A DNA stretch of 43,024 nt from Chiloscyllium plagiosum (taxonomy: Eukaryota): positions 1 to 43,024 of the forward strand of contig NW_025214405.1 of assembly GCF_004010195.1 (NCBI RefSeq), read 5' to 3'. Below the pieces are notes generated by a model, which saw nothing but the letters and a program-made list of their open reading frames with translations, made no database searches and had not been told where the DNA came from. Below, in pieces: positions 8,533 through 40,672 of the stretch (its first letter is position 1; each line of letters opens with the position of its first letter). Made by a program: the position numbers and the translations under genes.

Positions 8533-8750
8533 GTAAAAACAATGACTGCAGATGCTGAACACCAGATTCTGGATTAGTGGTGCTGGAAGAGCACAGCAGT
8601 TCAGGCAGCATCCGAGGAGCAGTAAAATCGACGTTTCAGGCAAAAGCCCTTCATTATTCCTGATGAAGGGCTTTTGCCCGAAACGTCGATTTTACTGCTC
8701 CTCGGATGCTGCCTGAACTGCTGTGCTCTTCCAGCACCACTAATCCAGAA
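8533..8750. mobile_element. Short Penelope-derived fold-back insertion (family A terminal repeat, head-to-head)
   Basis: 88-bp inverted arms at 8567-8654 and 8663-8750 with 1 mismatch. TSD caaagtatctta(c/t)ag at 8518-8532 and 8751-8765. Confidence 0.9.
8660..8687 (+). ncRNA. Minimal hammerhead ribozyme motif (Penelope family A)
   Basis: CUGAUGA-A-GGGC-UUUU-GCCC-GAAA-CGUC. Confidence 0.7.
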
Positions 8751-10195
8751 CAAAGTATCTTATAGTCAGTAAAGCACTTTTTGAAATGTAGTCACTGTTC
8801 TACTGCAGTATCAGGCGTGAATATTTCTTCCCCAGATATTTAAATGTTTTTGATATCCACTGTCTAAGTTTGCATATGAAACATTATCTCTCCATATTTT
8901 CTGGCAGACCTGCTGAGTTTCTCCAACATATTCTGTTTTATTTTATTTCAGATCTGCAGTTGCTGTACCAGTTTGCTTTCATTTTAGCATTTAATAGTTT
9001 CCTGGTTAAATGTACATACTTGTTTCCTTGGTCCAATCTAAAGTCAGGTAACTAAGGGAGTATTACCCATCATACATTTGATGGAGCAAACAGGCTCCTT
9101 AGTGCTGCAAGTGATTCTAATTTGCTTCACTGCTACCCTGTGGTTGAGGAAAGCAAAATTCATACAGGACTTTTCAGCCAAATAACTATCTAGTGACCTC
9201 TCCTGGAGGGAAAACAGGATGATGCTCATTATAGTCACACATTGCACATGCATTCCTCTTTTGGCAAATATAAGATTAGAATGGTTTTTGGGCTTAATAG
9301 CAATGGAAGTAGATGCTTTACACAGTTTCTTCCTAGGTGAGATCATTAAAATATCTTTTAAGTTTGTAAAGTAGAAAATGAAGCAGTGTATAAATCCAAT
9401 TAAAACAGATGGAGCATTTAAGAGATATCTTAACAATTGGAATGAAAAGCAACTGAAAATCTTGGAGAGCATAAAAAGGCATTTCAAAACATTAGCAGTC
9501 TTTGATAAAATTGTTTACAGTTGTTCTTGATTGATACTATAACCCAAATAATACTGATATCAAAAACCACGGTCTGTTCTTTATTTCACTGATCAAAATG
9601 AAGTTACATGTTCAGATGAACAAAGTGATTCTGATCATAACTCTGGTTCCCTATGTGTTCATTCATTGTGAAATAAAGCAGTTTAATAATTTGCACAAAG
9701 CCTTCCTTGATCACATTGTGTTCACACTGATCACCTTTGAAGAGATTAACTGTGAAGGACAAAACAACATAAATTAAGGAAAAGAAACACATTGTGCAGG
9801 AATGGGTAGCACAACACTGTTTGATGATTGAATGAGAAATGGTATTACAACAACATGGTTTCAAGATTTGATGGACTCATGGTTACTCCAACTGCTGTCA
9901 TCCCCATAAATAGACATTGCCGCAAAATTTCAGGGAGAAGTTTCAGATCATCCACGACTGTCACTGTATTTGGGAGCCTTTACTAATCCTTACAGTATTA
10001 CATCTGCTGCCCCTGACAATGAAAACAGTCCTTCACTATCATTGCCAGAGCTTAGAAAAATGGTTGATGCCATTAGCAAGTGATCTTGTGGATGATTAGA
10101 CAATACTGGGTCTCCTTCACACTCATGTCTTCTTTCTTCACATGCACTTATGTTTAGGTTTCTCCAACTTGTTGTTTGCTTGTTTCTTCACATTT

Positions 10196-10522
10196 TCTAA
10201 ACATGGGTGGGAATTTTAAAACTGAGGCAGTTTTTGTTGTTTTTTTAAAATAGGTATTTTTATTGAAAAAAGAAAACTTAAGATTTTTACTGTACTTTTC
10301 TACGTGCTACTATAACCTATCTGAAATGGTGCAGATTCTTGGTGACTGAACATTTGCAAAAAAGTGAGATCTTGTCACCAACATTTGTACTGCAGTTGGT
10401 ATTCCCATGGAGACCACTTGGGATGCTTGTCTAAACATGGGTGGGAATTTTAAAACTGAGGCAGTTTTTGTTGTTTTTTTAAAATAGGTATTTTTATTGA
10501 AAAAAGAAAACTTAAGATTTTT
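10196..10522. repeat. 93-bp identical direct duplication (10196-10288 and 10430-10522) spanning the L1 3' junction
   Basis: tctaaacatgggtgggaattttaaaactgaggcag...cttaagattttt occurs twice, 234 bp apart. Confidence 0.95.
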
Positions 10523-10799
10523 TTACAAAATTACAAAAGTAATGCAAACAAGTATAAGCACCAATATAAAATTAAATAAATAAGAAAAAAAAACAAAAAA
10601 GGGGGAAAAAAACCAACTAACTACTAATCTATCCTTCAAACAACCAAAACAAAAAATGGGATATCATACATTACTATCAGTAAACTACAAAACAATTAAA
10701 TAACTAGATACATGCTCAAAATGGATTTATTTCAAGTCATAACAAAACCAGTATTTATAGGATTCCTCTTCCCAGGGGTCCCCGAACCAGCCAGAACCA

Positions 10800-13700
10800 T
10801 TATCACAGAAAAACAAAAACCCTGGACAGTATGGCCAAAATGTTTTCTAAAATAATTTCATTTTTTGGTGCACTATATTTGTGAGGAAGTCAATGGGGAT
10901 ATATTCCACGACTATCCTGTGCCAGTTCGAAAGTTGTGGGGGGCCCTCACCCAATTCACTAAAATATTTTCCTTGCACAAAAGGAGAGAATGGTAAATAA
11001 TTTCCTCCTGTACACATCCAGGGAGGAAAAATCTGAAGAGCCCAAAAGTAGGGACACTGAATCCAATCTAATCTCTGTACCCAAGATCAAGGCATTCGCT
11101 ACTATATCCCAATACCTGCGGATCTTATGGCATGTCCATAGACAATGCATGAGAGTGCCAACTTCTATTTTACATTTAGGACACATTGGGGATGATCCTG
11201 CTTTGAATTTTGCGAATCGTTCAGGTGCCATATGAGCCCTGTGCAGTAATTTAATTAAATAGCCTGAGTTCTATTACAAATAGATATCTTTCTGGCATTT
11301 TCCCAGATGTCCTCCCACATTTCTAAAGAAATTTCCAACCTTAATTATTGATTCCAGGTTTTATATAATCATTCCATGTCCTTCGATATCTTATTATATA
11401 ATGACTGATAAAGAGTACTGACCGAGGGCAGCCCCATCGGCCATAGCACTCTTCTTTCCCTATCCGATTTGTAGGGATTAACTATCAGTGTGGTCTTCTT
11501 TTGTATAAAGTCTCGTATTTGGAAATACCGAAAGAGGTCCCTGTTAGGCAGTCCAAACTTGTGGTGCAACTGCTCAAAAGGACATAATAACCTCCCCATT
11601 GAACAGGTCTCCCAAGCAAGAGATACCTCTCGACTTCCAAGTTTTAAATGTAGCACCTGTCAGCCCTGGCTGAAATCCTGATGCTCCCACTACTGGGGTA
11701 TTAAGGGGGTTGTTTTGCAGGTCATTTTCATCTTGTCGCATATGCCTCCATGCCTTAATTGTATTTCATTCAGTAGAGTTTTTACAATAGTCCATAATAG
11801 CTCTCATCCTGTCCATAAATAAAAGATTGAGGAGGGAACATTTTGCTTGGGAGGACTCAATGTCTAACCAGATTATTGTGGGTCACAAGAGACCCGATCA
11901 GCTACATAGGACAATAAGGAGCTCAATTGATACCTCCTGAAATCTGGAAAGTCTAGTCCTCCCCTTGCTTGTGGAAGCTGCAGCTTTTCTAATTTGAGAA
12001 GGGGCCGTATTTGATTCCAAATAAAGGAGCCGAGCCAGCCGTAGAGCTTACGCAACGCCAATCTCAGCAGCATCAGGGGGAGCATTCTCATAGGATAAAG
12101 AAGATGACGTAGAATATTCATTTTAACTAAGGCTACTCTGCTTAACCAGGATATTGGGAGATCTCCCTAGCATTGAAGGTCCTTCCTTATTTTCTCTAAT
12201 AAGTGCACAAAATTGGCTTTATACAGCTGACCAAATACTAGAGTGATAAAAATACCTACGTATAGAAAACCTTCTAGTGACCACTGAAAGGGAAAGCAAG
12301 ATCCATCCAGTAAATTAGATACACTGGCAAGACCTCCCAACAGCATGGCCTCCGATTTCATAAAATTGATTTTATAACCTGAAAACATACCAAATAGATT
12401 GACCACTTGAATTAGGCGGGATATGGATATCAAAGGATCACTTAAGAAGAGGAAGACATCATCCCCATAGGGAGTGATTTTGTGCTTGCCCGATCCAACC
12501 CTCGGAGCAGTTATGTTAGGGTCAGTTCGTATAGCTTCCGCTAGTGGTTCAATCACCAGCGTGAATAATAATGGTGAAAGAGGACATCCCTGACACAGCC
12601 CCTGCCAACACTAAAGCTATCCGAACCTAAACCATTGGTCATCACCGCTGCTTTGGGATCATTATACAATACTGAAACCGATTTAGTAAATACCTCTCTG
12701 ACAGCGAACGTTTCCAGTGTATAAAAAAGATATGGCCATTCTACCCGATTAAATGCCTTCTCTGTGTCCAGGGAGACAACTAAACCTGGTATTGTTCCCT
12801 GTTGACAGGCTTGTATTGTATTTAAGACCCTGCTAATATTATTAGTTGATCTGCGACCCTTTGTAAACCCCATCTAATCCTTTTTTATAATGTATGGTAA
12901 GACCCTCTCCAGTCTTAATGCTAACATTTTGGAAAGAGTTTTGAAATCCACATTTAGCAAGGATATCGGTCTATATGATGAGCAATCTATTGGGGCCTTT
13001 CCCTTTTTAAGAATGAGAGAGATATTTGCTTCTTTCAACAAAGGCGGGAGGCAGCTCTTACTATGTGAGCAATTGTACATATTTATGAGTGGCCCGTCCA
13101 GTTCCCCTATAAACTCTTTATAGAACTCAACCTGGAATTCGTATGGCCCAGGCACTTTGCCACTCTGAAGCTGCCGAACCACATCGAGTACTTCCTGGGT
13201 TGTCAGAGGGGCATTCAAGATCCACACCTGCTCAGAGGTTAAGTCTAGAAGGGCCAAATTTTTAAAGAAGGATTCCATCTTTCCAGTTCTATCCTCACAG
13301 TCCTACAATTTATACAGGTGTAAAGGCTATATTGATCTTTTTAAACAATCACAAGTCAAGGTACCAGCACTTTCTCTAATGGACGTAATGGCTGGGGGAA
13401 CCTTTTTCTTTCCAGCAAGGTACGCTAGATATCTGCCAGGCTTATCGCCCTATTCAAATAATCTCTGCTTTGCGAATAATATTTCCCTCTTTGCTGTTTG
13501 GGTAAGTGCAGTATTCAAGGCTGCCCTAAGGGCTGTGATCCTTTGTAGCTTAGTAATGGAGGGCCTGTCAACATATGCTGTCTCAGCTGCCTTCAAGTGA
13601 GCCTCAAGCAGGTGCTGTTCCTCTCCCTTTTGTCTTTTCCAAGTCGCAGAATATGAGATGACCAAGCATTGCGCATATACCTTAGTGGTCTCCCACATCA

Positions 13701-14551
13701 TCAATGGGTTACTGGCTTACTTGAATTAATTTCCCAGAAGGTTTTGAGTTCCTGCGAAAAATACTTTATAAATTTGCTATCCTTTAATGTGAAGGGATCC
13801 ATATGCCAATGTCAGGGGCCTATCCCATCATCCCTAGTCTTGACTTCCATATATACTGTGACATGATCAGAAATAGCTATATTACCTATTTTACAAGACA
13901 GTATCGAATTCAAAAGGGTCGAGGAGGCAAAAAAAACATATCAATTCTGGTATGGCACTTGTGTGGATTACAGTAGAAAGTAAAGGCTCTACCCTGGGGA
14001 TTAAGGCACCTCCACACATCTACTAGCCCTAGCTCCTTGTTCAGATCCACCAGTTGTCTAGATCTATACCCGTAGTGCTCCTAGGTATCCTACCTGTCTC
14101 TGGATCCATAATACAGTTAAAATCTCCTCCTATAATTGCATGGCGGACCCTAAAAACCATCAATGTAGAGTACGCTTCCATTACAAATTTAAAAGGGTGC
14201 GTTGGGGGGCAATAAAGATTCAAAATTCCATATTCCTCTCCATGTATTAGGGCTTTGATCAATATATGCTGTCCAGACTCATCTTTTATCTGGCTTAACA
14301 TTTGGAAAGGAAGATTCTTCAGAATAAGAATGGCTACTCCCCAATTTTTTGAACTGAAAGATGAAAAGAAAGCTTGATCAAATCCACCCTGTTGTACCTT
14401 TAAAGTGTTCTTTATCAAGTAGATGTGTCTCCTGTAACAGAGCTACATCAACCCTTTCGTTTTTAAGACTTGATAATATCTTTTTCCTTTTGATTGGCGA
14501 ATTACTCCCCTTGACATTCCAGGTGCACCACCTAAACGAATGGCTAGCCAT
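10800..14551 (-). pseudogene. L1 ORF2p (APE endonuclease, reverse transcriptase, CCHC), multiply disrupted
   Basis: APE: WCTWNVKGSNSPIKRKKIL...LLQETHL and IIGGDFN. RT: SYRPISLLNVDFKTLSKMLALRL, SLDTEKAFNRVEW, YGDD. Zn-knuckle: CPKCKIEVGTLMHCLWTC. The 3' end is approximate. Confidence 0.9.
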
Positions 14552-15223
14552 GACCGTCCAGGCAAGCCCGAGACCCTCCAGGAGGAAGAACCCCACACAA
14601 AAGACCTTGAATAAAGACCATAGAGAATTCTCAAATACAAAAAAAGCTTTAAAACAATTAAACCAACACAAATAAAAACTACTCCTAAAAAAGAAATACA
14701 CAATGCAAAACATATTTGAAAGGAGACTTTCCCCTTGCTCCTAGGGGGTATAACTACCTATCAATAACCCCACCATAACCTCTCCTAGCTAGAGCACTGC
14801 CCCCCGGCCCAGGCATTGTAGAATGGAGTAAACAAATTCAAGCGTTTTATAAAACCAGAGTTAAAAGTGAGTGACCCAACGCGCCCCCCACCAACACCTG
14901 GGTGCATTTAGTAAAAACAATACAAAATAGAAATATATAACGTTACAAAATTACAATCCCAGTAAGTATTAGGCAATTAAGTAAGATGAAGAAAAAGGAA
15001 AGCCCACTCTAGAAAAAAAGCAAATCAGAACAAACTCCCCCTCCCACAAATCAAGTAAGCTGCACGAACTATAAAAAAAAGACCAAGGGAAGAGTAAAGA
15101 GCAAGCCCCCCACTCCCACAGAAAGATGAATGGAAAACAGATGAAGTAGGAAAAAAAAGGGTAAACAAAAGGGGGGCAAAATAAAGTCGTTATCCATACG
15201 GTTCAACTCCCAACTCCCGCAGT

Positions 15224-16075
15224 CTATTTAAGAGAGACCAAGAATTCTTTTGCTTTCTCTGGTGATCCAAAGTTATAAGCAGATCCTCCATGGCTGAGGC
15301 TCAGCGTTGCCAGATAACGCGTGGAGTATTGACTATTGAGGCCTCTCAGATGCTTCTTCGCCTCATCGAATGCCCTCCGCTTGCAGACCATGGCTGGAGA
15401 GAAGTCCTGCAATAACATTATCCTGGAACCCTTGTGCATCATGGCCTTGGGATCCTTCCCCAGGACTCTGGAGGCCTCCACGAGCATTTGTTTTTCTTTG
15501 TAGCATTGGAGTCAGATTAGGACTGGGTGGGGGCGCTAGTCAGGCCAGGGCCTGCGTACAGCAACCCGGTGGGCCCACTTCACCCGCACCCAGCATGGTC
15601 CTGACTCCAACTTCAATAATTTTGGGAGTCATCGCTCCAAAAAGTCCACAAGGTGGCGTTCCTCTTCCTGTTTGGGAAGGCCTAGCAATATTTTTCCGAT
15701 GACCCCGATTATCGAGGTCATCGATGTGCTCCTCCAGGGTCCGGATTCGATGCTCGAGAGCCCAGACCTGACCCACAGATGACTTGGCAGCAGTCTCCAA
15801 GGCGCGGCCCGTTGCTCAGCCCCTCCGACACACGGCTCGAGTTTTTCAATCTCTCGGACATGCTTCTGCAGCATGACCGAGATCGACTCCCACGTGGACC
15901 GGGTCTCCTCAATGAAAGCGTCGACCTTCTACTGGAATTTGGTGATCCCGGAGAACAGGCTCATCACCGAGGGTAAATCCCCCAAGGTGGCCGCGGATGT
16001 CTCTGCTGCTGCGAGAGGGGGTGGGGGAGGGGTCCCTGCCTGTTGCGAGCTGCGGGAGTTTTTGACCTTAGTCAT
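15224..16075 (-). pseudogene. L1 ORF1p (coiled-coil/RRM/CTD), frameshifted
   Basis: Starts MTKVKNSRSSQQ. Contains LEEHIDDLDNRGHRKNI, GLPKQEEERHLVDFLE and C-terminal IMLLQDFSPAMVCKRRAFDEAKKHLR...FGSPEKAKEFL, split across frames. Confidence 0.85.
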
Positions 16076-16230
16076 TTTTTTAAAAACACCAAACTGTTCA
16101 AGTTTGATGTAAAATGACTGAGTACGCTGGGCTAAAGCTATCCTAAATAATTTAAAGGCTGAGGTGAAGGTGGGTACCCCACTTTGCCCAAGTCTTAGGC
16201 AGAGCACAACAGACTCCGACTTACTGGGTC

Positions 16231-16242
16231 GCCGCCATCTTG
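16231..16242 (-). promoter_or_regulatory. YY1-binding motif in the L1 internal promoter
   Basis: GCCGCCATCTTG (minus CAAGATGGCGGC) starts at +10 of the element and matches the YY1 consensus CCGCCATNTT. Confidence 0.7.
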
Positions 16243-16344
16243 AATCCCCCCAAAACTGAGGCAGTTTAACCATAGACCAATGGAATCAGCTAACATTAAT
16301 CAGTCATTTTTACGTTTTGGGAAAAAAGTAATTCAAATTAAAAG

Positions 16345-19149: not shown

Positions 19150-20978
19150 CAAGGCTAGTAAACATGGGTTTGTGAGGAGGCTATCTTGTTGAACAAATTT
19201 GATTGAATTTTTCAAGGAAGCGACTGGGTATTTAGATGTGGGTATTGCAGTTCAAGCAGTCAACGTGGACTTCAATGGAGCATTTGACAAGGTCTGGTAA
19301 AACAGACTAGCTAAGAAGCTAATAGCCCATGAGATCCAGAATAATTTGCTAAATGGATCCAAAATTGGTTCAGTGGCAAGAGCAGAAGCTGATGGTGAAA
19401 GATGTTTTTGTGACTGGAAGACTGTGTCCAGTGGCGTACCACAGGAGCTTGTGCTGGGTCCTTTAATGTTTATTACATACATTACTGACCTAAACATGCA
19501 TTTAGAGGGCTTGATCAATAAGTTCACAGTTGACACAAAAATTGGTGATGTGTAAAACAGCTAGGAGGGGAGGATTTAGCCACAGGCCAATATCAGGGAG
19601 ACAGGACACCTACTCGCAAAGCGCTTCAAGAGAATATCTCTGGGACACCCACACCAATCAACCCCTCCACCCCATGGGTGAACACTTCAACTCCCCTTCC
19701 CACTCTGCTGAGGACATGCAGGTCCTGGGCCTCCTCCATCACCACTCCCTTACCACCCAACACCTGAAGGAAGAACGCCTCATCTTCTACCTCAGGACCC
19801 TCCAACCCCATGGGATCAATGTGGATTTCACCAGTTTCCTCATTTCCCCTCCCCCCATTTTATCCCAGTTCCAACCTTCCAGCACAGCACTGCCCTCATG
19901 ACCCACCCCATTTTATTCATCTTCCTTCCCACCTATCCGCTCCTCCTCCCCTCCAACCTATCACCTTTACCCCAACCTCCATCCACCTCTTGCACTCTCA
20001 GCTACCTTCCCCCCATCCCCACCCCCACCCATTTGTCTCTCCACTCCAAAGCCTCCCACCCTCATTCCTGGCAAAGGGCTTTTGCCCAAAACATTGATTT
20101 TCCTGCTCCTTGGATGCTGCCTGACCTGCTGTGCTTTTCCAGCACCAGTCTAATCTTGACTTTAATCTCCAACATCTGCAGTACTCACTTTTACCACAGG
20201 CCAAGGTAGATGGGCCGGTCAGATGGAATTTAATCTTGTAAAGGGAAGTGATGCACTTTTGGAGGACTAAAAGCAAGAGAGTACATGGTGAATGATAGGA
20301 AGCTAGGGAGTATAGAATGTCCAAAGATCCCTAAAGGCAGCAGGGTAAGTAGATAAGGTAGTTAAGAAGACATATGGGATACTTGCCTTTATTAGTCAAA
20401 ACACTGAGTATCGGAGCAAGGAGGTTATGATGGAACTATACATACCATCAATTAGGTGACAGCTGGAGAATTGTGTGCAGTTTTAGTCACCAAACTATAG
20501 AAGGGATATGATTGGCTGAAGAGGATGTAGGGGAGATTCTCCAGGATGTTTCCTGGGCTGCAATGGTTCGGCTATGAAAAGAGATGAGATTGAACTGGGA
20601 TTGTTTTCTTCAGAGCAGAGAAGGCTAAGTCGGAATTGGATTGCAGGCGACAAACTTCTGAGGGGCATAAACATAACAGATGGGGAGAAATCTTTTCTTT
20701 TATTTGAGAGGTCAATAATTAAGGGCACAATTTTAAAGTTAGGAATTTGAGGTTTAGAGGGGATTTAAGGTAAAAAGTTTTCAATCAGAGGGTTGTGGAT
20801 ATTTGGAACTCACTGTCTAATTATGGTGGTAGAACCCTCAAGACACAGGTAGTATTTAGACAAACATTTAAGCACAATAGCATACAAGGCTACAGGCGAA
20901 GTGCTGGAAAATGGGATTAGGGTAGATCCATGTTAGAAGACTAGACCCTGCATCGAACAGCCTCTTTCCATGCTGTAA
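19150..20978 (+). mobile_element. Decayed CR1 LINE (host of the Penelope insertion at 19591-20193)
   Basis: DWKTVSSGVPQELVLGPL...INKFTVDTKIG; continues through the RT C-terminus to the 3'UTR. Confidence 0.85.
19591..20193 (+). mobile_element. 5'-truncated Penelope-like element inserted in a CR1 LINE
   Basis: GIY-YIG C-terminus (EHFNSPSHSAEDMQVLGL...KEERLIFYLRTLQPHGINVDF), a C-rich 3' region, then a degenerate family A terminal repeat. TSD ccacaggccaa at 19580-19590 and 20194-20204. Confidence 0.88.
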
Positions 20979-21004
20979 AAACGCAAATCAGTACATCGGG
21001 ATTA

Positions 21005-21090
21005 CAAAGTTAAAAATCACACCACACCAGGTTATAGTCCAACAGGTTTATTTGGAAGCACTAGCTTTCAGAGCGCTGCTCCTTCATCAA
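21005..21090 (-). mobile_element. Penelope family B terminal repeat with degenerate hammerhead motif
   Basis: Minus strand uUGAUGA-A-GGAGC-AGC-GCUCu-GAAA-GCUA, with a palindromic AGCU helix III. Confidence 0.7.
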
Positions 21091-21140
21091 CCACACGATT
21101 GATGTAACCAAGACAGGGTTAAAATGGTATATTCAACGAG

Positions 21141-21271
21141 GTAAAAACAATGACTGCAGATGCTGGAAACCAGATTCTGGACTAGTGGTGCTGGAAGAGC
21201 ACAGCAGTTCAGGCAGCATCCTGAAGGAGTTTCGAAATCGACGTTTCGGGCAAAAGCCCTTCATCAGGAAT
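21141..21271 (-). mobile_element. Short Penelope family A terminal-repeat insertion with intact hammerhead motif (21240-21267)
   Basis: gtaaaaacaatgactgcagatgctgg...gacgtttcgggcaaaagcccttcatcagg. A partial TSD aaaatggtat flanks it. Confidence 0.85.
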
Positions 21272-21429
21272 AAAAATGGTATGTTGCAGAGACAACATGG
21301 GATGACCCAAGTGATAAAAATGGAACTGGAAGAAGATTAGGAAAGCCGAAGACCAGATCAAAGGATGAGAATCGTAAACAAAATGAAATTGGAACAGCAC
21401 TATGTAGCAGAAGGAGATGAGGAGTGATC

Positions 21430-22560
21430 AACCAGCTCCATGGCAACCACAGGTCAAATGGGAGAAACATTAAAACGAGAACACAACACATTTATTTAAA
21501 ACATTCCAATGTGTTATAAAATTATCATCGAGAAACTATTATCTTGCATCTCTATCAATGAAGAAAGTGAACAGTAACATAAATCCTGAATCGTTTGCCG
21601 ACATCCGAGAGCCGATCCGGCTGTGCAAAACCAGGTAAGCCCGTTCGCCACCTGGAGGAGGAGTCTCACGGTGGTACGTTGGCCACACAAACACACACTT
21701 TGAGAACTAACTACTCTGATAAACAACGTACAGTTTCACCTCAGGGCTAGGATTGAAAACTATACACCTTTTGTTTTCTTAGTCCGCAAACCCTGTGTTG
21801 CGTTTATCAATGTGAGTCCTGCAAGGAAATGCTGACGATCACTTCGTTCTAGTGCTGAGACCTGTCCACTCTGGAATTAACCCACAGTTGGAATGTTTGC
21901 AAACCGTACAACTCTGGGTGTTTTGGAAAACTGTCTCCAATGGAAGGGGGAACGGAAAATCACATTTGCATAGTCAATCCCACCTATATCTTGGATGCCA
22001 ACAAAATGCAGTCCTCCTTACCAGCTGACGTCACATCCCCTGTAAAAGGAGTCTGATCCCCGAACGCCACGTACGTGGATTTATTTTCAGCTCTCAACCA
22101 ACCCTGCTAACAAACTACGCAACTCTCCTGATGGACAGTAGAATTAACCATTAGGAGATGGACTGGTGTATAAGGCGGGACCTCTTGGGGGAGCCTGACC
22201 AATGGAGGTGATATAGAGGCGTGGCCTATCGGTGCTGGTGCTTGGTTACGTTGCAACATTTGTCAAACGGGGTCGAGCTGTGGTGGATTGGAGCTGAAGG
22301 TGCTGTTTACGTTCATAGAGGGTTTGCGAAGACCGTGGCTGTGTATCTTTCTACGGGTTAGAGGTGCCGAGGGTAAAGGGAACACCACTAAACCTGATCT
22401 TTCATGTTCAACTTCATCATTGAAAAAGAACTTCATTACCCAGAGTCCTGCCTGAAAGTAGGAGGCACCAGACATCAGGGTAAGAAGTACAGATACGCCG
22501 CTAGAATGAATCGTTGTATGAAATTTATTCCGTACCAATCCTAATAGTTGTTCTGCCGTG
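21430..22560 (+). promoter_or_regulatory. CpG-enriched putative promoter / 5' non-coding exons, probably of NUCB2
   Basis: Mostly non-repeat sequence with locally retained CpGs. Motifs: CRE TGACGTCA 22026-22033, palindrome CCACGTACGTGG 22067-22078, GC box GGCGGG 22174-22179, CCAAT 22199-22203, GGCGTGGC 22218-22225. Strong + strand donors CAG|GTAAGC (21635) and G|GTAAGA (22480). Lies ~9 kb upstream of the ATG exon. Confidence 0.6.
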
Positions 22561-22835
22561 ACATGAGCAGGCTGTCTTAAAGGCATTAAACTTGATGTCC
22601 ACAGCAGGTGACCGTTAAATTCTGACACTTTGTGACCCTTGGCAAAATCTCTGCTCAAATTGTGAAACATGTTATGTTTAACGTTTTCTTTCTGCAGGTT
22701 GGAGTTCAAAATATTTCATCATACAATTTCACAGCACATTCGGTTTAAGACTTAAAACATAACTTAAAAACTTTGTTATATTCGTTCCAAAGCTTGTTAA
22801 AGGCTTGACACTGACCACAAAACCACATTTCTGGT

Positions 22836-27430: not shown

Positions 27431-28092
27431 GAGGCAAAGTATCTAAACAGGGAAACAAATTTAAAATTTTTAGATTGGTTGAACAAAGATCAATTCTGGT
27501 AAGCATATGTTATTTGGAAGAGAGAAGTGATTGGAGTAGCATACCAAAGGTACAGATGCTTGGTTCGTTGTTGATCTTGAGAAATGTAAATTTTGGGTTC
27601 TCCACCTGAAGTAAAAATTGGTAAAATAAGGAAGTGATTTTAAGAAAAGTTTTATATTTACCAAAATTATGCAGAGTTCTGTTTTGAAAAAAAAGTACTG
27701 ACTTCTCTGGTCATCCTTCATCTTTCTTTCCAAACTCTGTTGCGCTAGTGCTCTCTCTCTCTTCCCCCCCCCCCCCCCCCTCCAAAGGGAATGAGAAGAC
27801 TTGTAATAAAGTTATTTGCATTGATGATGGTTGAAATATAAAATGCAACATGGTTGAGATAGAGATTGTCCCCTCTCTTTTGTGGAAATTTGATAAATAT
27901 TTCAAGTTGAGAGAGATAAAAGGCAATGGGGAAATAGTCAGTGAGATTAAATTTGGGTTACTCTGGGAGTTTAAAATGCAACACAAGAATGCAGAACAAT
28001 ATGGCCTCATACAGTGGGTTTCAAAGTATTTGATGCTGTTTCTGACTGTGTGCCACATGGTTATGTAAATGCAGTAATTGCTACAATATGTT

Positions 28093-28849
28093 GTGGTTCT
28101 GTTCACCGAGCTGGGAATTTGTGTTGCAGACGTTTCGTCCCCTGTCTAGGTGACATCCTCAGTGCTTGGGAGCTTCCTGTGAAGCGCTTCTGTAATCTTT
28201 CCTCCGGCATTTGTAGTGGTTTGAATCTGCCGCTTCCGGTTGTCAGTTCCAGCTATCCGTTGCAGTGGTCGGTATATTGAGCCCAGGTCGATGTGCTTAT
28301 TGATTGAATCTGTGGATGAGTGCCATACCTCTAGGAATTCCCTGGCTGTTCTCTGTTTGGCTTGTCCTATAATAGTAGTGTTGTCCCAGTCAAATTCATG
28401 TTGCTTGTCATCTGCGTGTGTGGCTACTAAGGAGAGCTGGTCGTGTTGTTTCGTGGCTAGTTGGTGTTCATGGATGCGGATCGTTAGCTGTCTTCCTGTT
28501 TGTCCTATGTAGTGTTTTGTGCAGTCCTTGTATGGGATTTTGTAGGACAAGCCAAACAGAGAACAGCCAGGGAATTCCTAGAGGCCTGGCACTCATCCAC
28601 AGATTCAATCAATAAGCACATCGACCTGGACCCAATATACCGACCACTGCAACGGACAGCTGGAACTGACAACTGGAAGCGGCAGATTCAAACCACTATA
28701 AATGCCGGAGGAAAAATCACAGAAGCGCTTCACAGGAGGCTCCCAAGCACTGAGGATGTCACCTAGACAGGGGAAGAAACGTCTGCAGCACAAATTCCCA
28801 GCTCGGCGAACAGAACCACAACAACGAGCAACAAATCTCACAAACTTTG
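28093..28849. mobile_element. Penelope-like element (GIY-YIG 3' region) with inverted duplicated end
   Basis: Minus-strand ORF YKIPYKDCTKHYIGQTGRQLTIRIHEH...AREFLE (GIY-YIG). Inverted arms of ~280 bp at 28089-28369 and 28543-28823. 16-bp TSD attgctacaatatgtt at 28077-28092 and 28850-28865. Confidence 0.92.
28126..28165 (-). ncRNA. Minimal type I hammerhead ribozyme motif (Penelope family C)
   Basis: Minus strand GCA-CUGAGGA-U-GUCACCU-AGAC-AGGGGAC-GAAA-CGUC-UGC: core boxes, stem II, palindromic ACGU helix III, 3-bp stem I. The + strand copy at 28747-28786 has a C>A change at the base of stem II. Confidence 0.75.
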
Positions 28850-29334
28850 ATTGCTACAATATGTTACACCTCCCAAGAGAATTCAGATAATTTTGAATCA
28901 TCTAAAGAGCACTGAACATGTTTCCCACTAAGTTTTACAATTATATCCTTTTTTAAAATTCTGTTTCGTCTGCAAGATATTTCAGATTTTGTCTTACATC
29001 TTAAGGCATTCCACTTTGAATTATTTGCTTTTACACAGCTTACTGGACCAACATTTTCATTTAGGACAATTTCATTGAATTTTGGATCAGAAATCCAGCT
29101 GACATTGAAATATAGGAACTAAGTAAGTTAGTTTAATAACTTACTGGCTGCAGCTTTAAATCTAATGACATTCCCTTTATTGATTTTTTTTTTAAACATT
29201 AATTTTTCAGTATCAAACTGGGATGCCCATAACTTGACTAAATGGCAGATAGTTTATTATCAAGAACTATTCATCGTTTTATCTGTCACTAATTGGGAAT
29301 AAATAGTTTCTGCAACAAATGCTTTTATGTTGAG

Positions 29335-29494
29335 ATATCTCCACCCTTCAAGCTCTCTGCCTTTATCCCTGATGAAGGGCTTTTGCCTGAAACGTTGATT
29401 TTACTGCTCCTCGGATGCTGCCTGAACTGCTGTGCTCTTCCAGCACCACTAATCCAGAATCTGGTTTCCAGCATCTGCAGCCATTGTTTTTACC
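29335..29494 (+). mobile_element. Penelope family A terminal repeat with hammerhead motif (29369-29396)
   Basis: cctgatgaagggcttttgcctgaaacgttgattttactgctcc...gcatctgcagccattgtttttacc; near-identical to the 8.6-kb copy. Confidence 0.85.
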
Positions 29495-30384
29495 TATTAC
29501 ACTGACAACCCGGTTCAAATTTTAATAATTTATTCATGCTCTACTTTGAAATCATAAGCAATGGCAATAATAATTTACCATCTAGCACTTCTAACATAAC
29601 ATTTCTGGGTGCTTCAGAGAAGTATAATGAGTTAAAAAAAATGTGTCAACCATAGAAATATTGCAAATGATGACCTGAAACTTGCAAAAAGTAGAGCTTT
29701 AGCAAGCATTTCTTAGGAAGAGCAGGAAGATGAAGAGAGAAAAAATCTAAAAGATGGAATCCTAGAACATTATATCTTTATTATTGAAAGAATGTCTATT
29801 GAATTTGGGATGAATTGGGAAACACTGCACAGACAGTCAGAGACATAAATATGTAAGTGTTGCTGGTACGAGGAGAGGTTAGAGAGATAGTTAAGGGTAA
29901 GGTATTGAGTGATTTGAACACTTGAACGTAAAATTGAAATTACAGTATTTGGGGGTGGCAATCAGTGAACAGGACTTGGTAGCTAAAGGACATAGCTACT
30001 CAACTTTTGATGGTAAGTGGAGATTAAAAGAATAGGGAAGACTAACAGGAAATGCACTAAAATACTTGAGTCCAAAGGTGTCAGTGGCGTGAAGGAGAGC
30101 TTCAACAGAGATTAAATTAGGAATAAAGGAAGGCAATGTTAAAGGTAGTAGTAGATAATTTTTGTTCAGGAGTTTGAGGTTAAAATGTATTCAGGACCAC
30201 ATATGTTGCGGAGTCTGTGGATAGTCTCTTAGTCTAAGGCATGGTTTGCAAAATGAACTGAATCAGTGGCAAGGGTTAGGAACCTTGTAGTAGGAGCAGA
30301 GGATGCCATGGTCTTTCTGTTGTTCAACTAGAAGATGTTTATCACATCCCATGGTGACATCGAAGTAGTTTCTTTTTGTTTTAT

Positions 30385-30780
30385 GAGATGAGGACTTCGG
30401 TTGCTAGATTAACATTTATTGCACATATTTGATTGTTCTGGTGAAGATGGTGAGTTGCTGCCTTGAACTATTGCTGTCACTGGAGTGTAGGGACACCCAG
30501 AGTGCTGTTAAGAAAAGGGCTTCAGGAGTTTGAGCCAGTGTAAGTGAAGGGATAACAATATGGTTCTAAGTCAAGATGGTGTGGGACTTGGTGGTGGTGT
30601 TCCCATGCATCTGCTGCCTTTATCGTTCTAGGTGGTAGATATTGTAGGTTGAAAGATGCTGGCAAGTAGCCCTGGTGAGTTAGTGTAGTTTATTTTGTAG
30701 AAGGTACACACTGCTAAAACTGCATATCAGCGGTGAAGTTGGTGAATGGGATGCTAATCAAACAGGCTCCCTTGTCCTTT
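30385..30780 (-). mobile_element. 3' end of the older CR1-clade LINE family (related pieces at 35395-35615 + and 38030-38440 +)
   Basis: gtggtggtgttcccatgcatctgctgcctt..gttctaggtggtaga is the reverse complement of 18310-18360-like sequence. Confidence 0.7.
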
Positions 30781-31479
30781 TCTTCTATTAGAATAGGCTA
30801 TGGATTCAAGAAGTAAATTTGGGTTGCATCAGATGCCAATGTTATTCACTTAACACAGTTATTAATGAGGCTTACTGGTTCATGATTAAGAATGGAGATT
30901 TTTGTGTCTCTTTCCACAGCAAAGGAGCATTGTAACCATTTATTATCAGTCTGTTGCCATGGCTAGGAGTTTCCTTGTTTAGATCTGTACTCCATTACAT
31001 AAGTTATCTACTTTTTATTTAAGCTAACAGTTATGCAGCAATAAAACAGATTTTGTTGAATTTATATGTATTTCTAACACTATTTTCAATGTAAAAGCTT
31101 AGGTTTTAGGATTTGCACATCATATAGTTGTTTTAAAAAAAAGTATGTTTTGTAAGATTGCAATTTTATTATTTCAGGCTATTAATGCACTTTAACTTTC
31201 TGTTGTTTTACATGGTATTTCAGCAGGGTGTAATCAAATCAAATGGCAGATCTGTAGTGGCTACTATGTTTATGTTGATGGAAGAAACAACCATATTTTG
31301 TGTGCCTATTTCAACATGGAGTTTTAGATTAATGTCAGCCTTCTGAATTCACAATTGCATGTCGTAGTTATAGGCATGATCATACAGCATCCATTTTGGT
31401 ACTTGGTTAATTTAATTGAAATGTTCAAGTTGAATGAGTAAATGAGATTGAGGAGGAATTTTCTTTTAATACATTATAG

Positions 31480-31617
31480 ATGCATTGGAAGAGTATGTCA
31501 CTGTCCCGCTGTTGGTTGCTGCTCTGTCTCCTTCTTGCTGCTGAAACTGTACCAATCGATAAGATAAAGGTGACCAAAGTAGAAGAACCAGAAGTGCAGG
31601 CAACAGTTGAAAGTCCA
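31480..31617 (+). CDS. NUCB2: Nucleobindin-2 (nesfatin-1 precursor), first coding exon: signal peptide plus start of nesfatin-1
   Basis: Acceptor ttttcttttaatacattatAG is immediately followed by ATG. The 138 nt are open: MHWKSMSLSRCWLLLCLLLAAETVPIDKIKVTKVEEPEVQATVESP, then a phase-0 donor GTAAGT (31618-31623). This resembles the human NUCB2 N-terminus (MRWRTILLQYCFLLITCLLTALEA-VPIDIDKTKV...KIEPP, followed by DTGLYY). NUCB1 is less likely given MxW and VPID..K.KV. Confidence 0.88.
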
Positions 31618-31794
31618 GTAAGTATTCCAATTGCAAGTAAAACAATTTATATATAGAATCATTTGAGATTCAGAAGTACCAGTATTGGAAATAATGGTCT
31701 TAGGTTTGTATACTTTTGAGAGATGTATAAACACAACAGTGAATGAACAAATAATTAATTATCGCTCAGTTATGCAAGGCTTTATTCCCTTATT

Positions 31795-32945
31795 CATTGT
31801 CAACAGCACAGAAAAAGGCCCTTAGGAATGTTGTGTCTGCACCAGTCAAATAAATCGCCTGACTATTCAAATCTCATTTTCCAGCACTTGGCCCATAGCC
31901 TTATATGCCTTTGCATCACAAGTGTACATCTAAATACCACCTAAGTGTTATGATGTTTTCTGCCTCTACCATCTTTAAAGCAGAGAGTTCCAGATACCCA
32001 CCACTCTTGTGTGAAAAAAATGTCTTTACATCTGGTCTAAGCCTACTGTCCTTTATCGTAAATCTATTGCCTGGTAATTGATCCCTCCAAAGGTTTCTTC
32101 TTGTCCACCTTATCTAGCCCCTCAATTTCATACATCACAGTCATGTCTCATCAATCTCCTCTGCTCCTCAGAAAGCAACCACAGTCTGTCCAATCTTTCT
32201 TCATAACTGAAACTCTCCAGTCTAAGTAACATGCTGGTAAATCTCCTCTGCACTGTCCACTGCAATCATATCCCACTTACGTGGATTCCAGAGCTATGCA
32301 TAATCCAGCTGAAGCCTAATTGCCACTTTGTACAATTCCAGCATAATCACCCTGCTCTTAAACTCTTTGCCTCAGTTAACAAAGGCAAGCACATCTTATA
32401 CCTTCTTAATCATTTTATTCACTTTTCCTGATACCTTAAGGAACTCATGTACATGCACAATAAAGGTGCCTCTGATCCTCAGTGCATCACTTCACCTTTA
32501 TCCAGGTTGAATTCCATTTGCCTATGTGACCAGCTGGTGTATATCCTTTGTAATCTAAGGCTATCCTCCTGTCTATTTAGTACTCCACCAATTTTTGTAT
32601 CATTGACAAGCACATTAATCAACTATCCTACATTCACGTCTAAATAATTTTAGATAAATCACAAGCAGGCCCTGACATTGACCCCGTGGGATCCCACTGG
32701 ACACAGATATCCAGTCAGAAAAACATCTCTCAATCATCATCCTCTGCTTCCTGCCTCTCAGCCAAATGTAGATCTGATTCACAAAATTTTCTTAGGTCCC
32801 ATGGGTTCTTAACTTATCTGCCAGATTTTCATGCAGGACATTATCAAAAGCCTTGCAGAAGTCCAAGTAGATTTCATTGCCCTCGTCCACACATCTCTTC
32901 AGAAACAGTCAATCAAGTTGGCCAGACATGACCACCTTCTCCATA
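31795..32945 (-). mobile_element. Decayed CR1 LINE
   Basis: Reverse-strand RT remnants (gggatcccactgg, tcaaaagccttgcagaagtcca) and 3'UTR. Confidence 0.8.
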
Positions 32946-34469: not shown

Positions 34470-35245
34470 TCTCTAATGCCCTTTATTTAAAAGGGAATGG
34501 AATATAAAATTAAGGAGGTTTTGTTGAAACTATACAATAGGAGAAAGTGAGGTCTGTAGATGCTGGAGATCAGAGCTGAAAATGTGTTGCTGGAAAAGCG
34601 CAGCAGGTCAGGCAGCATCCAGGGAACAGGAGAATCAACGTTTCGGGCATAAGCCCTTCTTCAGGATTCCTGAAACTATACAATACTCTAGTTACACCAC
34701 TCTTAGAATACAGTTAACAGTTTTCATCCCCTGATCTAAGAAAAGACCCATTAGCATTTCAGGAGCCCAGAGAAGGTCCACAAGGTTGATTATCTGGTAC
34801 GGAGGATCTTATGAGGTGAGATTGAGCAGGTTGGTCTCGTACTTATTAAAATTTCAAAGAATGACAGATGACTCTATTGAAACACTTGTGAGATTCTTAG
34901 ACAACTTGACAGGGAAGATGTGGATAGATTGTTTCCCCTTGTTGGTGAAGCCAAAGCCAGAGCCAGAGCAAATGGGTTGCCCATTTCCAACAGATGAGGA
35001 GGAATGTTTTTCTGAGGGGAGTGAATCAGTTGAAATCTTTCCTGCAGAGGGCTGTCGAAGTGGGGCTCATTCAAGGTTACTGAAGGCTGAGATAGATAGA
35101 TTTTAAATTAATAAGGGAATCCAGGGTTATGGGGATAAGGCAGAAAAGTGGAGGTGAGGATGATCAGATCAGCTGTGGTCTCATTGAATGGCAGAGCAGA
35201 GCTGGGCTGTATGGCCTACTTCTACTCCCGTATCTCAGTCTTATG
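34470..35245 (+). mobile_element. Decayed CR1 3' fragment
   Basis: aaactatacaatactctagttacaccactcttagaatac (LY..LV...LEY), aaggctgagatagataga, ggcctacttctactcc 3'UTR. Confidence 0.8.
34540..34670 (-). mobile_element. Short Penelope family A-like insertion in CR1, with hammerhead motif (34637-34664)
   Basis: Perfect 15-bp TSD tgaaactatacaata at 34525-34539 and 34671-34685. Minus strand CUGAAGA-A-GGGC-UUAU-GCCC-GAAA-CGUU. Confidence 0.88.
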
Positions 35246-38679: not shown

Positions 38680-39540
38680 GAATATATGAGCAGTAATAGA
38701 CTATTTACTCCTTCAAGCCTGCTCCACCCTTCATTAAGGTGGTTAAAAACAATGACTGCAGATGCTGGAAACCAGAGCTTAGATTAGAATGGTGCTGGAA
38801 AAGCACAGCAGTTCAGGCAGCATCCGAAGAGCAGTAAAATCGATGCTTCGGGCAAAAGCCCTTCATCAGAGATACACCATTCATTAAGATCATAGCTGGA
38901 CTAATTATGTCTTTAACTCCACTTTCCTGCCTGACCCTCATAAAACTTCATTCCTTTGTAGATTTAACTCCACTTTGAATATGTTAAATGATGCACTCTT
39001 CACTCCTCTCTGTGGAAGAGAATTCCAATGATTAATGAACCATTTGAGTGAAGAGATTCTTCTTCTTCTCCAATTTAAGATTAGGTGTCTCCAGTTTTGA
39101 AACTGGGTTCTCCAATTATCAGTTCCTGGCAAAGGAAACATTCTCTCCTTATCTACCTTGTTAAGTCTACTCAGAATGTGATTCATTTCAAAATGATCAC
39201 CTCATTCTTCTAAAGTCCAAGGAATATAGACCAAAATTACTCGACCTTTATTCGTGAGACAACTCTTTCATCCCCAAAAAAAATCAACCCAGTGAATGAT
39301 CTGAAGTACCTCCCTTGCAGACACATCCCATTTTAAACTCTATGCAATATTCTGGGTAACAGAGAGACCTTACCTAAATAGCAAGCCTTTACTACTTACA
39401 TTCTCAATCCTCTTCACAATAAAGGCCAATATTCCATTTTCATTCTTAATTACTTGCTGTACCAGAATGCTAACATTTTGTGATTCTTATGAGAACACAG
39501 AACCTGCTGTACTCTAGCATTCTACAGTCTTTCTCATATT
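38680..39540 (-). mobile_element. Decayed CR1 3' fragment
   Basis: WNSLPQR...NIFKVEL remnant and 3'UTR. Confidence 0.75.
38741..38870 (-). mobile_element. Short Penelope family A insertion in a CR1 3' end
   Basis: Same terminal repeat as other family A copies. TSD cacc(c/a)ttcattaag at 38725-38738 and 38875-38888. The hammerhead GAAA box is mutated. Confidence 0.85.
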
Positions 39541-39569
39541 AAATAGTAATGAACCTTACCAAAAGGGTA

Positions 39570-39898
39570 TCACTAGCTAGGCCAACATTTATTGCCCATC
39601 TCTCATTGACAATCAATTGCTCTTGGCCAATCACATTGCTGTGGACCTGACATCATGTGTAAGCCAGACCAGGTGTGGATGGCAGATTTCTTTCCCTAAA
39701 GGATATTGGAGCCAGATTTAAAAAAAAAAATCTGCAATAGTTTAATGATTGTCATTGAACTCTTAATTCCAGACATATTTTTAAAATTGAATTCAAATTC
39801 CTCCATCGGCCATGGCTGGACTTGAACCCAGGTTGCCATAAAATTATTTGGGTCTCTGGATTAATAGTCAAGTAGTAATACCACCATGCTATTGCCTC
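39570..39898 (-). mobile_element. tRNA-derived SINE sharing its 3' tail with the LINE at 17.2-18.6 kb
   Basis: Minus head gaggcaatagcatggtggta...gggttcaagtccagcc. The tail gggcaataaatgttggcc matches 18549-18564. Confidence 0.7.
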
Positions 39899-40418
39899 AT
39901 AGATATCTTCCAGTCAACCTGTTTTGAGACACCAGAATGTGTATTCCAGAATGTGTGATCAGGAGACTATCATCCTTCCTGATGCTCTGCACTGACTTCA
40001 GACTGCCCCTCGAGCTTTGCAATCCTGAATTTGAGCTCAGACAACTGGAGACACTTCAATGCATATAGTCCATTGAAGTAACAGGGAATGGTTGGGCCTA
40101 GGACACTGCACTTGCACTAATGTCCTGAGCCTCAGATGATTAATTTCAAACAATCTAAACCATCTTACTTTGTGTAAATAGGACTCCAACCAATAGAGCA
40201 TTTTACCCTGATTCACTTTAAGTTTACTTTTGCTTGTTATATCTTGCAGTCAAGTGCTGCTTTGACATCAAGTGGAATCCTTTATCTCACCTTTTGGAAT
40301 TCACCTGTTTATCCATGTTAGCACCATGACTACAATGAGTTTGAGGCCAAATGATCTTAGTGGGTCAGTTAGTAGGGTAAAGGCCTTTGCTGATTTAGAG
40401 TAGACTAATGCAATAATT

Positions 40419-40672
40419 GCTGAAAATGTGTTGCTGGAAAAGCGCAGCAGGTCAGGCAGCATCCAAGGAACAGGAGAATCGACGTTTCGGGCAGGAGCCC
40501 TTCTTCAGGAATGAGGAAAGTGTGTCCAGCAGGCTAAGATAAAAGGTAGGGAGGAGGGACTTAGGGGAGGGGCATTGGAAATGCGATAGGTGGAAGGAGG
40601 TCAAGGTGAGGGTGATAGGCCGGAGTGGGAGTGGGGGTGGGGGCAGAGAAGTCAGGAAGAAGATTGCAGGTT
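40419..40672 (-). mobile_element. Penelope family A-like 3' end with intact hammerhead motif (40481-40508)
   Basis: Minus strand CUGAAGA-A-GGGC-UCCU-GCCC-GAAA-CGUC, preceded by a C-rich 3' region like that at 19.9-20.0 kb. Confidence 0.85.

Follow-up and report, generated by a model that had tools for sequence, protein, structure and literature searches.

Minimal hammerhead motifs of probable Penelope-like element origin in a 43,024-nt stretch of the Chiloscyllium plagiosum genome

In the window, i.e., the whole 43,024-nt stretch of Chiloscyllium plagiosum (hemiscylliid shark) DNA that was analyzed, 13 hammerhead-related copies were found: eight of family A, three of family B and two of family C. 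It is very probable that these motifs are minimal type I hammerheads from the terminal repeats (pLTRs) of Penelope-like elements (PLEs) that encode an endonuclease and form at least three families, and that the copies in the window are dead-on-arrival 3' stubs. An earlier sequence-only reading of this DNA had assigned the motifs to PLE minimal type I hammerheads of three sequence families and had judged them to be extremely abundant. Both points were borne out, the link to PLEs being shown for families A and C and inferred for family B. The "very large catalytic-RNA repertoire" also proposed there was not: eight of the 13 copies were broken, two of the five intact ones were predicted to be fully sequestered within long inverted-repeat hairpins, and the remaining three were solitary, with a helix I of 2-6 bp and no near dimer partner.

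A strict descriptor, consisting of the core, the G10.1-C11.1 pair and at least 2 bp of helix I, matched five sites in the window (8660+, 21267-, 34664-, 40508- and 28162-), and a relaxed descriptor matched six. Motif occurrence was far above chance: 1000 dinucleotide-preserving shuffles yielded 0 strict matches and a mean of 0.005 relaxed matches (maximum 1), a comparison on which it bears that the descriptor was designed after the motifs had been seen. Hammerhead families were not among the five matches of Rfam covariance models to the window at E values up to 5. The Rfam mir-722 and mir-2007 matches, which corresponded to a palindrome at 8531-8750, scored far under the gathering cut-offs and were rejected.

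A hammerhead-like motif was present at each of the nine places listed previously. The plus-strand C copy listed at 28747 has its C3 at 28750; the minus-strand numbers proved to be the low ends of the motifs, whose C3 lies at 21267, 34664, 40508, 21090 and 28162. Five of these nine motifs matched the strict descriptor, and the other four failed it; at 29369+, the motif has a G10.1-U11.1 pair and a single helix I pair, and at 28750+, it has A at 11.1. The consensus given for family B was matched by neither listed B copy (21090- and 7467+). Copies missing from that list were 8657-, 20068+ and 38869- of family A, all with broken cores, and 7413- of family B, which begins within stem II.

The core CUGANGA...GAAA...UH was whole in 8/13 window copies. 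The extra nucleotide after CUGANGA was confirmed in all 12 tabulated copies. The palindromic ACGU or AGCU, said to replace helix III in every motif, was found in 9-10 of the 12 and was lost by CG>CA at 20068+ and 38869-, the latter also lacking A15.1. The G10.1-C11.1 pair was kept in seven of the 12 (6/8 in A, 1/2 in C and 0/2 in B). The loop of family A varies as described (UUUU/UUAU/UCCU), dividing two A subfamilies; the variation is confined to the loop, with no stem covariation. Helix I comprises 2 bp, U.U and A-U in family A (6 bp at 34664-) and 3 bp in family C; in family B it has 3 bp in the family reads and is missing from the window copies. Such lengths fall at the weak end of the range published for min-HHR, the hammerhead class of metazoan PLEs described by Cervera and De la Pena 2014 (PMC4209133).

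The family A units were as follows.

8531..8750, no strand assigned: head-to-head palindromic insertion; intact motif in the right arm, C3 at 8660+, scissile bond 8687/8688
8657, minus strand: left arm of 8531..8750; motif cut at its 5' side; arm about 36 nt longer, this being the PLE tail
19590..20195, plus strand: 3' fragment of a PLE, probably Neptune-type; C-terminal GIY-YIG remnant up to about 19900, then a C-rich linker and an A end whose core is broken (20068+); 5' limit approximate
21139..21272, minus strand: A stub; intact motif, C3 at 21267, tail; candidate 10-bp target duplication
29362..29495, plus strand: A stub, sense in NUCB2 intron 1; core complete, U at 11.1, C at 2.2
34540..34670, minus strand: A stub of the second subfamily, antisense in NUCB2 intron 2; intact, C3 at 34664; 15-bp target duplication
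38744..38879, minus strand: A stub lying antisense within NUCB2 intron 2; core broken (GAAG-CAUC); 9-bp candidate target duplication
40419..40690, minus strand: A copy of the second subfamily, antisense in NUCB2 intron 2; intact, C3 at 40508; C-rich upstream linker, no tail; 5' limit approximate

The insertion at 8531..8750 is flanked by a 12-bp target duplication (8518-8529 and 8751-8762) and is predicted to fold into one hairpin (-181 kcal/mol, z -25), in which P(stem II) is 0.0. The GIY-YIG remnant near 19590 showed 51% identity (E 3e-26) to P0018, a protein with RT, a CX4CXXC linker and GIY-YIG, and the A motif sits approximately 170 nt 3' of the GIY-YIG ORF end. The C-rich linker of 20068+, located behind this Neptune-like remnant, was also found in the 40508- copy. 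The 6-bp helix I of 34664- arises from a 5-nt inverted stub at the 5' end of its unit. In the 29369+ copy, the C at 2.2 is U in most family reads, and 29367 C>T was seen in 67/68 reads of run X21.

Family C was represented by one insertion with two arms.

28089..28850, no strand assigned: insertion of family C, probably Penelope/Poseidon-type; end of a GIY-YIG ORF at 28149-28577 (minus strand) with the intact motif 28162-; 12-16-bp target duplication
28750, plus strand: shorter inverted arm of 28089..28850; motif with A at 11.1 and a tail

Here the motif lies at the very 3' end of the ORF: the core overlaps the last codons (S-T-E-D-V-T-stop), the stop codon being at the top of stem II. The inverted arms extend over 284 nt and are 95% complementary. 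The ORF is 82% identical to a Chiloscyllium punctatum protein bearing RT and GIY-YIG. Because a Pfam search with the two PLE ORFs (A and C) returned 0 families, so that the GIY-YIG family was not matched, the identity of these ORFs rests on protein homologues. A CX2-5CxxC linker between RT and EN marks Neptune/Nematis and is absent in Penelope/Poseidon; judged from the homologues only, it is present for family A (P0018) and absent for family C (P0001).

The three hallmarks of inverted arm, tail at one end and target duplication were found together at 8531-8750 and 28089-28850. Target duplications were sought in 11 units; none was found for five of them, and a 7-bp match of the B copy 21090- was not credible. 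Tails of 30-36 nt are optional. Most copies are 85-135 nt long and start within approximately 13 nt of the core, stub 5' ends often lying only a few bases from it. No full-length or tandem PLE was found within the window.

Three family B copies were distinguished.

7309..7413, minus strand: B stub; begins inside stem II, without CUGAUGA; keeps AAUAAA; tail of about 30 nt
7467..7500, plus strand: B-like motif whose core is complete; stem II eroded (G10.1-U11.1), helix I not properly formed, B tail absent; likely an older relative
21004..21089, minus strand: B stub; C3 position 21090; core truncated at U4, with 11.1 occupied by U; scissile position 21062/21061

The 21090- copy reads UUGAUGA because the insertion was cut at U4. 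The possibility that its U3 represents the published U3-A8 variant was ruled out, since G8 is kept and the family reads have C3. In this copy, AAUAAA occupies 21052-21047, 9 nt behind the scissile bond, and is followed by the poly(A) positions of the family reads (21035 and 21032), 27-30 nt 3' of that bond, and by a GU-rich stretch. Poly(T) was found in 880 of 5480 aligned reads of one RNA run, 12-15 nt behind AAUAAA, as loose ends of 511 + 369 reads at 21032 and 21035, at UA dinucleotides; these counts come from one sample, approximately 2% of one run having been read, and a few strong genes could dominate them. A second run of this sample yielded 0 aligned reads. The tail of 7309..7413 matches the loose end at 21004 in run X15. 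Read lengths imply that the poly(T) reads span the ribozyme uncut. Internal oligo-dT priming was considered for this site, but the sequence that follows in the family is rich in GU rather than in A; A-tailed copies may still occur elsewhere. It is probable that B copies serve as poly(A) sites at several loci. A poly(A) signal placed just behind the ribozyme and apparently used in RNA appears to be a new point; in 7 of 44 rows inspected of the published alignment, AAUAAA occurs within approximately 15 nt past the cut site, as judged by eye. Because none of the B copies in the window is flanked by an ORF, the parent of family B is deduced from its tail and anatomy only. Pattern scans recovered 0 stretches of family B in metagenome contigs and 0 of families A and B in viral contigs.

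That some copies lie inside the NUCB2 transcription unit was confirmed: six were found there, all in introns 1 and 2. The following exons define the unit.

22250..22479, plus strand: NUCB2 exon 1, non-coding, inferred; donor GTAAGA at 22480; 5' end approximate
31480..31617, plus strand: first coding exon of NUCB2; signal peptide; 100% identity over 46 aa to Hemiscyllium ocellatum nucleobindin-2-like

An X15 contig covers 22250-22478 at a depth of 43.7, and the depth of 18.2 in the exon 2 bin fits the same contig; the exon 1-exon 2 splice joint was not among the 15 joints listed. The exon at 31480-31617, the one coding exon that NUCB2 has in the window, was identified by reading the ORF list; searches by motif, charge and splice site, and by Pfam on 28 hand-picked ORFs, recovered no NUCB2 exon. 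The A stub 21139..21272 lies approximately 1 kb upstream of exon 1. Intact motifs were carried by 0/2 sense and 3/4 antisense intronic copies (Fisher p = 0.4), and selection against sense-strand copies is therefore not claimed.

Conservation of the core in excess of its flanks had been put forward as a check on function. The core is constant between families, but the genomic copies of family A keep it no better than the tail: mismatches numbered 6/88 in the core and 11/288 in the tail, a count over eight A copies in which the mixing of subfamilies exaggerates differences in the tail, and even so the core fares no better. The CpG formed by C11.1 and G12 was lost in 3/8 A copies. Duplex energies were -1.7 (ACGU) and -2.5 (AGCU) kcal/mol for helix III and +1.3 (A), -0.9 (B) and -2.4 (C) kcal/mol for helix I. 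No pile-up of molecule ends at the motif was found in the poly(A)-primed RNA reads; this is weak evidence of inactivity because such reads miss the 5' product and the 27-30-nt 3' product. The summed contig depths of X1 were 1e5-4e6 on the families against 6-10 on unique contigs, and they cannot serve as copy numbers.

Could the dispersed copies form a large pool of active ribozymes that pair in trans or within one pre-mRNA and cut RNA widely? Five strict motifs in 43 kb, the presence of family sequences in RNA reads and the ACGU palindrome common to families A and C, which makes mixed dimers formally possible, would fit this idea. However, helices III and I are marginally stable, the nearest intact same-strand partner of each of the three non-sequestered intact copies is at least 5.8 kb away, hairpins are predicted to sequester the other two, and the B poly(A) reads appear to run through the site uncut. 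Published activity is low even for designed dimers: min-HHR monomers did not cut and dimers cut weakly (PMC4209133), 8/9 Xenopus dimers failed to cut, and the anole PAc hammerhead, which depends on its protein, is not needed for insertion in vitro (PMC11167929). A widely active pool is accordingly quite improbable. Regulation of NUCB2 pre-mRNA by one exapted copy is less credible still, to the point of being barely tenable: apart from the presence of six copies in introns 1 and 2, both sense copies lack C11.1, one of them lies within the 284-bp inverted repeat, and all three intact intronic copies are antisense.

It has also to be considered whether family B is a mobile 90-nt module of ribozyme and poly(A) signal that, at many loci, clips off the last 27-30 nt and the tail when partnered or protein-bound. 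The two poly(T) ends behind AAUAAA with the GU-rich stretch beyond them, the published alignment rows and the rodent Clec2 3'-UTR hammerhead, which removes a poly(A) signal, speak for such a module; yet the reads represent a small part of one run, open to dominance by a few strong genes, and no ribozyme is needed to account for a poly(A) signal at the end of a retroelement. We regard this module as unlikely, and cutting by the B ribozyme at poly(A) sites with a regulatory effect is likewise unlikely. Similarly small is the chance that the short copies are an independent non-autonomous family (a non-LTR retrozyme or SINE-like) replicating as its own small RNA. The short length of most copies, their starts close to the core and the report of pLTR-derived retrozymes in one chondrichthyan agree with it, but the window holds no head-to-tail tandem units, the 5' boundary is upstream of the core rather than at the cut site, 20068+, 40508- and family C run upstream into PLE linker or ORF, and PLE insertion characteristically leaves such variable inverted arms and tails.

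The preferred reading, namely, stubs of PLE pLTRs, would operate as follows. According to the literature, a single transcript of an intact tandem element would carry two motifs, whose ACGU or AGCU palindromes would together form a common helix III of 4 bp; cleavage would then occur after position 17, probably only with the help of the element protein. Selection would act on the master elements, which would explain the constant core on unrelated stems. The scattered copies may have arisen by target-primed reverse transcription begun in the tail and halted near the motif; they would decay neutrally and cut rarely or never. Many genomic copies of family B appear to lend its Pol II poly(A) signal to transcripts running into them.

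These features largely correspond to the class in PMC4209133, which shares CUGANGA-H-G...C-GAAA-N-N'-U-H with the extra nucleotide between 9 and 10.1, the palindromic 15.2-16.2, a short helix I, several families per genome and mostly solitary copies, with some opposite-strand pairs 100-700 bp apart. Unlike that class, family A has only two contiguous helix I pairs together with a helix II of 4 bp, and the density of five strict matches in 43 kb, were the window typical, would be far above the 4,000 of coelacanth and 9,000 of Xenopus. No shark name was found in the one supplementary file of PMC4209133 that had hits. Poseidon PAc of Anolis carolinensis (Frangieh et al. 2024, PMC11167929) likewise has a pLTR hammerhead overlapping coding sequence, an optional tail arising from two RT start sites and no RNA-seq ends at the cut site; however, the PAc ORF begins at stem II, whereas the family C ORF ends there with the core in its last codons, and the shark families are known here from sequence. 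EN+ PLE units (Craig et al. 2021, PMC8557442; Arkhipova et al. 2013, PMC3846280) share 5' truncation, an adjacent inverted copy, a 30-40-bp tail at one end only and 9-16-bp target duplications; most window units differ in being just 85-220 nt. Non-LTR retrozymes (Li et al., bioRxiv 10.64898/2026.07.22.740005) are also pLTR-derived type I hammerheads of vertebrates, one chondrichthyan included, but are defined by tandem hammerhead units, of which the window has none. Going by the summaries in PMC6765202 and PMC6155905, the Clec2 hammerhead resembles family B in its cut site 5' of a poly(A) signal; it is, however, conserved, single-gene, discontinuous and active, in contrast to the high-copy minimal motif of family B.

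Neither a new mechanism nor a host function was demonstrated. With these findings the described min-HHR class is extended to a hemiscylliid shark, where its density is very high, and the shark copies lend themselves well to work on the role of the hammerhead in PLEs. For the activity of family B, the broken-core copies provide a ready internal control. Should many transcripts terminate in B copies, 3' ends in this genome would have been shaped by a retroelement; if, in addition, the B ribozyme cuts, host RNAs would be parted from their tails, and this would amount to a genome-wide de-tailing switch donated by a transposon.

A hammerhead-like motif was found at all nine places where the sequence-only reading had reported one, its minus-strand numbers being the low ends of the motifs; four of these nine copies fail at helix I or at G10.1-C11.1. 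Searches by fuzzy pattern, by blastn and with a profile built from the family A copies gave 13 motif copies in the window, eight of family A, three of family B and two of family C, as follows (position of core nucleotide C3 and strand).

Family A: 8657-, 8660+, 20068+, 21267-, 29369+, 34664-, 38869-, 40508-
Family B: 7413-, 7467+, 21090-
Family C: 28162-, 28750+

A relaxed descriptor gave six matches in the window, and a strict descriptor (core, G10.1-C11.1 and at least 2 bp of helix I) gave five, namely 8660+, 21267-, 34664-, 40508- and 28162-, which are called intact here. In 1000 dinucleotide-preserving shuffles, the mean was 0.005 relaxed and 0 strict matches. The descriptor was drawn up after the motifs had been seen, but the gap between observation and shuffles was too large for this to make a difference. 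The Rfam hammerhead was absent from all five matches at E up to 5. For an assumed genome size of ~4 Gb, five strict motifs per 43 kb would extrapolate to some 1e5-1e6, on the basis of one window and with wide error. In comparison, the consulted part of PMC4209133 gives ~4,000 hammerheads for coelacanth and ~9,000 for Xenopus. This counts sequence motifs rather than activities, and the proposed large catalytic-RNA repertoire is not supported.

Family A has the form AUUC-CUGAWGA-A-GGGC-N4-GCCC-GAAA-CGU-Y-GAUU, whose helix I is built from 2 bp and one further pair beyond a U.U mismatch. Family C consists of GCA-CUGAGGA-U, stem II (six pairs and one A.G) and GAAA-CGU-C-UGC, with a 3-bp helix I. 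The 5' side of family B is missing from its window copies; RNA reads on 21090- extend beyond it, and because their consensus there restores C3 together with a helix I of 3 bp (CAC/GUG), U3 of 21090- is the truncation point. In copy 34664-, an inverted stub of 5 nt at its 5' junction (34665-34670) creates a 6-bp helix I that is better than the family's own; for a cleavage assay, this would be the first copy to choose. A 38-nt segment between two head-to-head B-like copies (7422-7459) recurs at 8854-8891, followed by a weakly A-like tail (8893-8960, E 0.04), possibly as a further, older element end.

The predicted conservation of core over flanks held between families, where the core is constant despite unrelated stems. 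It did not hold among A copies: mismatches to the majority letter occurred in 6/88 core cells and 11/288 tail cells (1/44 and 1/144 in the four full copies of the first subfamily), and therefore there was no excess core conservation after insertion.

Family C is linked to Penelope-like elements (PLEs) by the ORF end at 28149-28577(-). This showed 82% identity to a protein of C. punctatum that contains an RT domain and has a C-terminus of GIY-YIG type, and the core sits within the last ORF codons (AGC ACT GAG GAT GTC ACC TAG). The stop codon lies at the top of stem II, and core and ORF overlap at 28146-28166(-) and 28746-28766(+). The C. punctatum homologue ends in STEDVT, as in the window, whereas STDEVS ends a protein of H. 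ocellatum; since both free letters of CUGANGAH are third codon positions, they would allow this swap. Annotated C. punctatum isoforms of MAP3K7 (P0003) and NT5DC1 (P0005) end in family C GIY-YIG sequence at 85-90% identity, either as exonised PLE ends or as annotation artefacts. Family A copy 20068+ follows a GIY-YIG remnant with 51% identity to P0018, a homologue carrying the CX4CXXC linker typical of Neptune-type elements, and shares a C-rich linker with 40508-. No ORF adjoins the family B copies in the window; their optional tail of ~30 nt is present at 7309-7335 and absent at 21004. The insertions at 8531-8750 (12-bp target duplication) and 28089-28850 (12-16 bp) are inverted pairs in which just one of the arms carries a tail, and a 15-bp duplication was found at 34540-34670; none was found at 5 of the 11 units tried.

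An old Neptune-like PLE remnant at 6390-6900(-) (E 2e-4 to P0018), in which no hammerhead was found, meets a LINE tail at its 3' end. The window is vertebrate DNA with many LINE remnants, recognised by matches to RT, endonuclease and zf-RVT, including a long frameshifted LINE with all three at ~10900-16300(-), GC-rich in its 5' part near 15000-16000. A 96-nt direct repeat (10193-10288 / 10427-10522, 99% identity) lies 234 nt apart.

The exon at 31480-31617(+) was 100% identical over 46 aa to a Hemiscyllium ocellatum nucleobindin-2-like protein and 96% identical to one from Chiloscyllium punctatum, which places the host among the hemiscylliid sharks. In run X15, presumably RNA, one contig spans 22250-22478 with a depth of 43.7. 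This explains the depth of the exon 2 bin, and therefore NUCB2 exon 1 probably ends at donor 22480; the exon 1-exon 2 joint was not among the 15 of 1070 joints listed. The region just upstream (21990-22250) is a probable promoter, CpG-rich and with what we take by eye to be GC-box-, CCAAT- and CRE-like motifs. Since no NUCB2 coding exon besides 31480-31617 was found in the window, six motif copies are intronic, in agreement with the suggestion that some lie within this transcription unit. Both sense-strand copies (28750+ and 29369+) lack C11.1, and three of the four antisense copies are intact (p = 0.4). Within the window, NUCB2 pre-mRNA carries no intact motif.

Eight of the 13 copies are broken, and the three CpGs of the family A motif are lost in 3/8, 2/8 and 3/8 copies. 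Local folding gave P(stem II) = 0.0 at 8660+ and 28162-, as the motif is taken up in pairing with the inverted arm, and opposite-strand pairs are unable to form a cis dimer. For the remaining intact copies, the nearest intact same-strand copy is at least 5.8 kb away. Calculated energies were -1.7 to -2.5 kcal/mol for dimer helix III and +1.3 to -2.4 kcal/mol for helix I. The window copies are predicted to be mostly inert; they are new family members of an already known class, which the sequence-only reading recognised correctly. In the part consulted, PMC4209133 describes all the motif traits listed by the sequence-only reading, with inactive monomers and weak dimers; PMC11167929 describes cleavage as protein-assisted and dispensable for insertion in vitro, with no RNA-seq ends at the site. 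Related work, also consulted in part, comprises PMC8557442, PMC3846280, PMC6765202, PMC6155905 and PMC2377424. No relevant literature on hammerheads or Penelope in sharks, including epaulette shark, was found outside subscription journals and Repbase annotations; the one chondrichthyan studied in bioRxiv 10.64898/2026.07.22.740005, as far as consulted, may bear on whether shark families are already catalogued.

Reads of four runs were aligned to 20900-31800 at 90% likeness. Of 5480 reads from X21, a poly(A) single-cell library (~2% of the run read), 4107 were only 90-95% alike to the window, and most aligned reads stem from other copies of the families. No pile-up of molecule ends was found anywhere in 20900-31800, cleavage products not being capturable by the X21 library type. 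Among the three largest loose-end classes listed for X21, two were poly(T), preceding 21032 in 511 reads and 21035 in 369; poly(A) ends at families A and C may be among 3494 further rows. These positions lie 15 and 12 nt behind an AAUAAA (21052-21047) on the element (minus) strand. Relative to the family B scissile bond, they are located 30 and 27 nt in the 3' direction, and AAUAAA follows that bond at 9 nt, so that signal and poly(A) positions together occupy 21052-21032(-). The joins fall at UA steps, and the sequence behind them is GU-rich, not A-rich. These 880 reads suggest that family B copies at other genomic places contain a poly(A) site that is in use. Another 746 X21 reads extend past 21089 by a median of 26 nt; because 68 + 58 + 26 approximates the 150-nt read length, they are probably largely the same as the poly(T) reads, and the B poly(A) reads probably span the ribozyme uncut. 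The consensus upstream of 21089 had an agreement of 0.63, which points to many contributing loci without giving their number. The poly(A) evidence comes from one sample, to which X22 also belongs and contributed 0 aligned reads.

No paper on a poly(A) signal in the PLE terminal repeat was found by title or abstract start, within the same literature and with PMC2678813 left out, and polyadenylation as a keyword gave no match in five PLE papers, including PMC4209133. By eye, AAUAAA directly follows the cut site in 7 of the 44 published alignment rows seen in PMC4209133, among them those of a turtle and of a Xenopus family, and therefore the pairing of hammerhead and poly(A) signal may be widespread. 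Of these results, only the poly(A) signal that follows the motif in family B merits follow-up.
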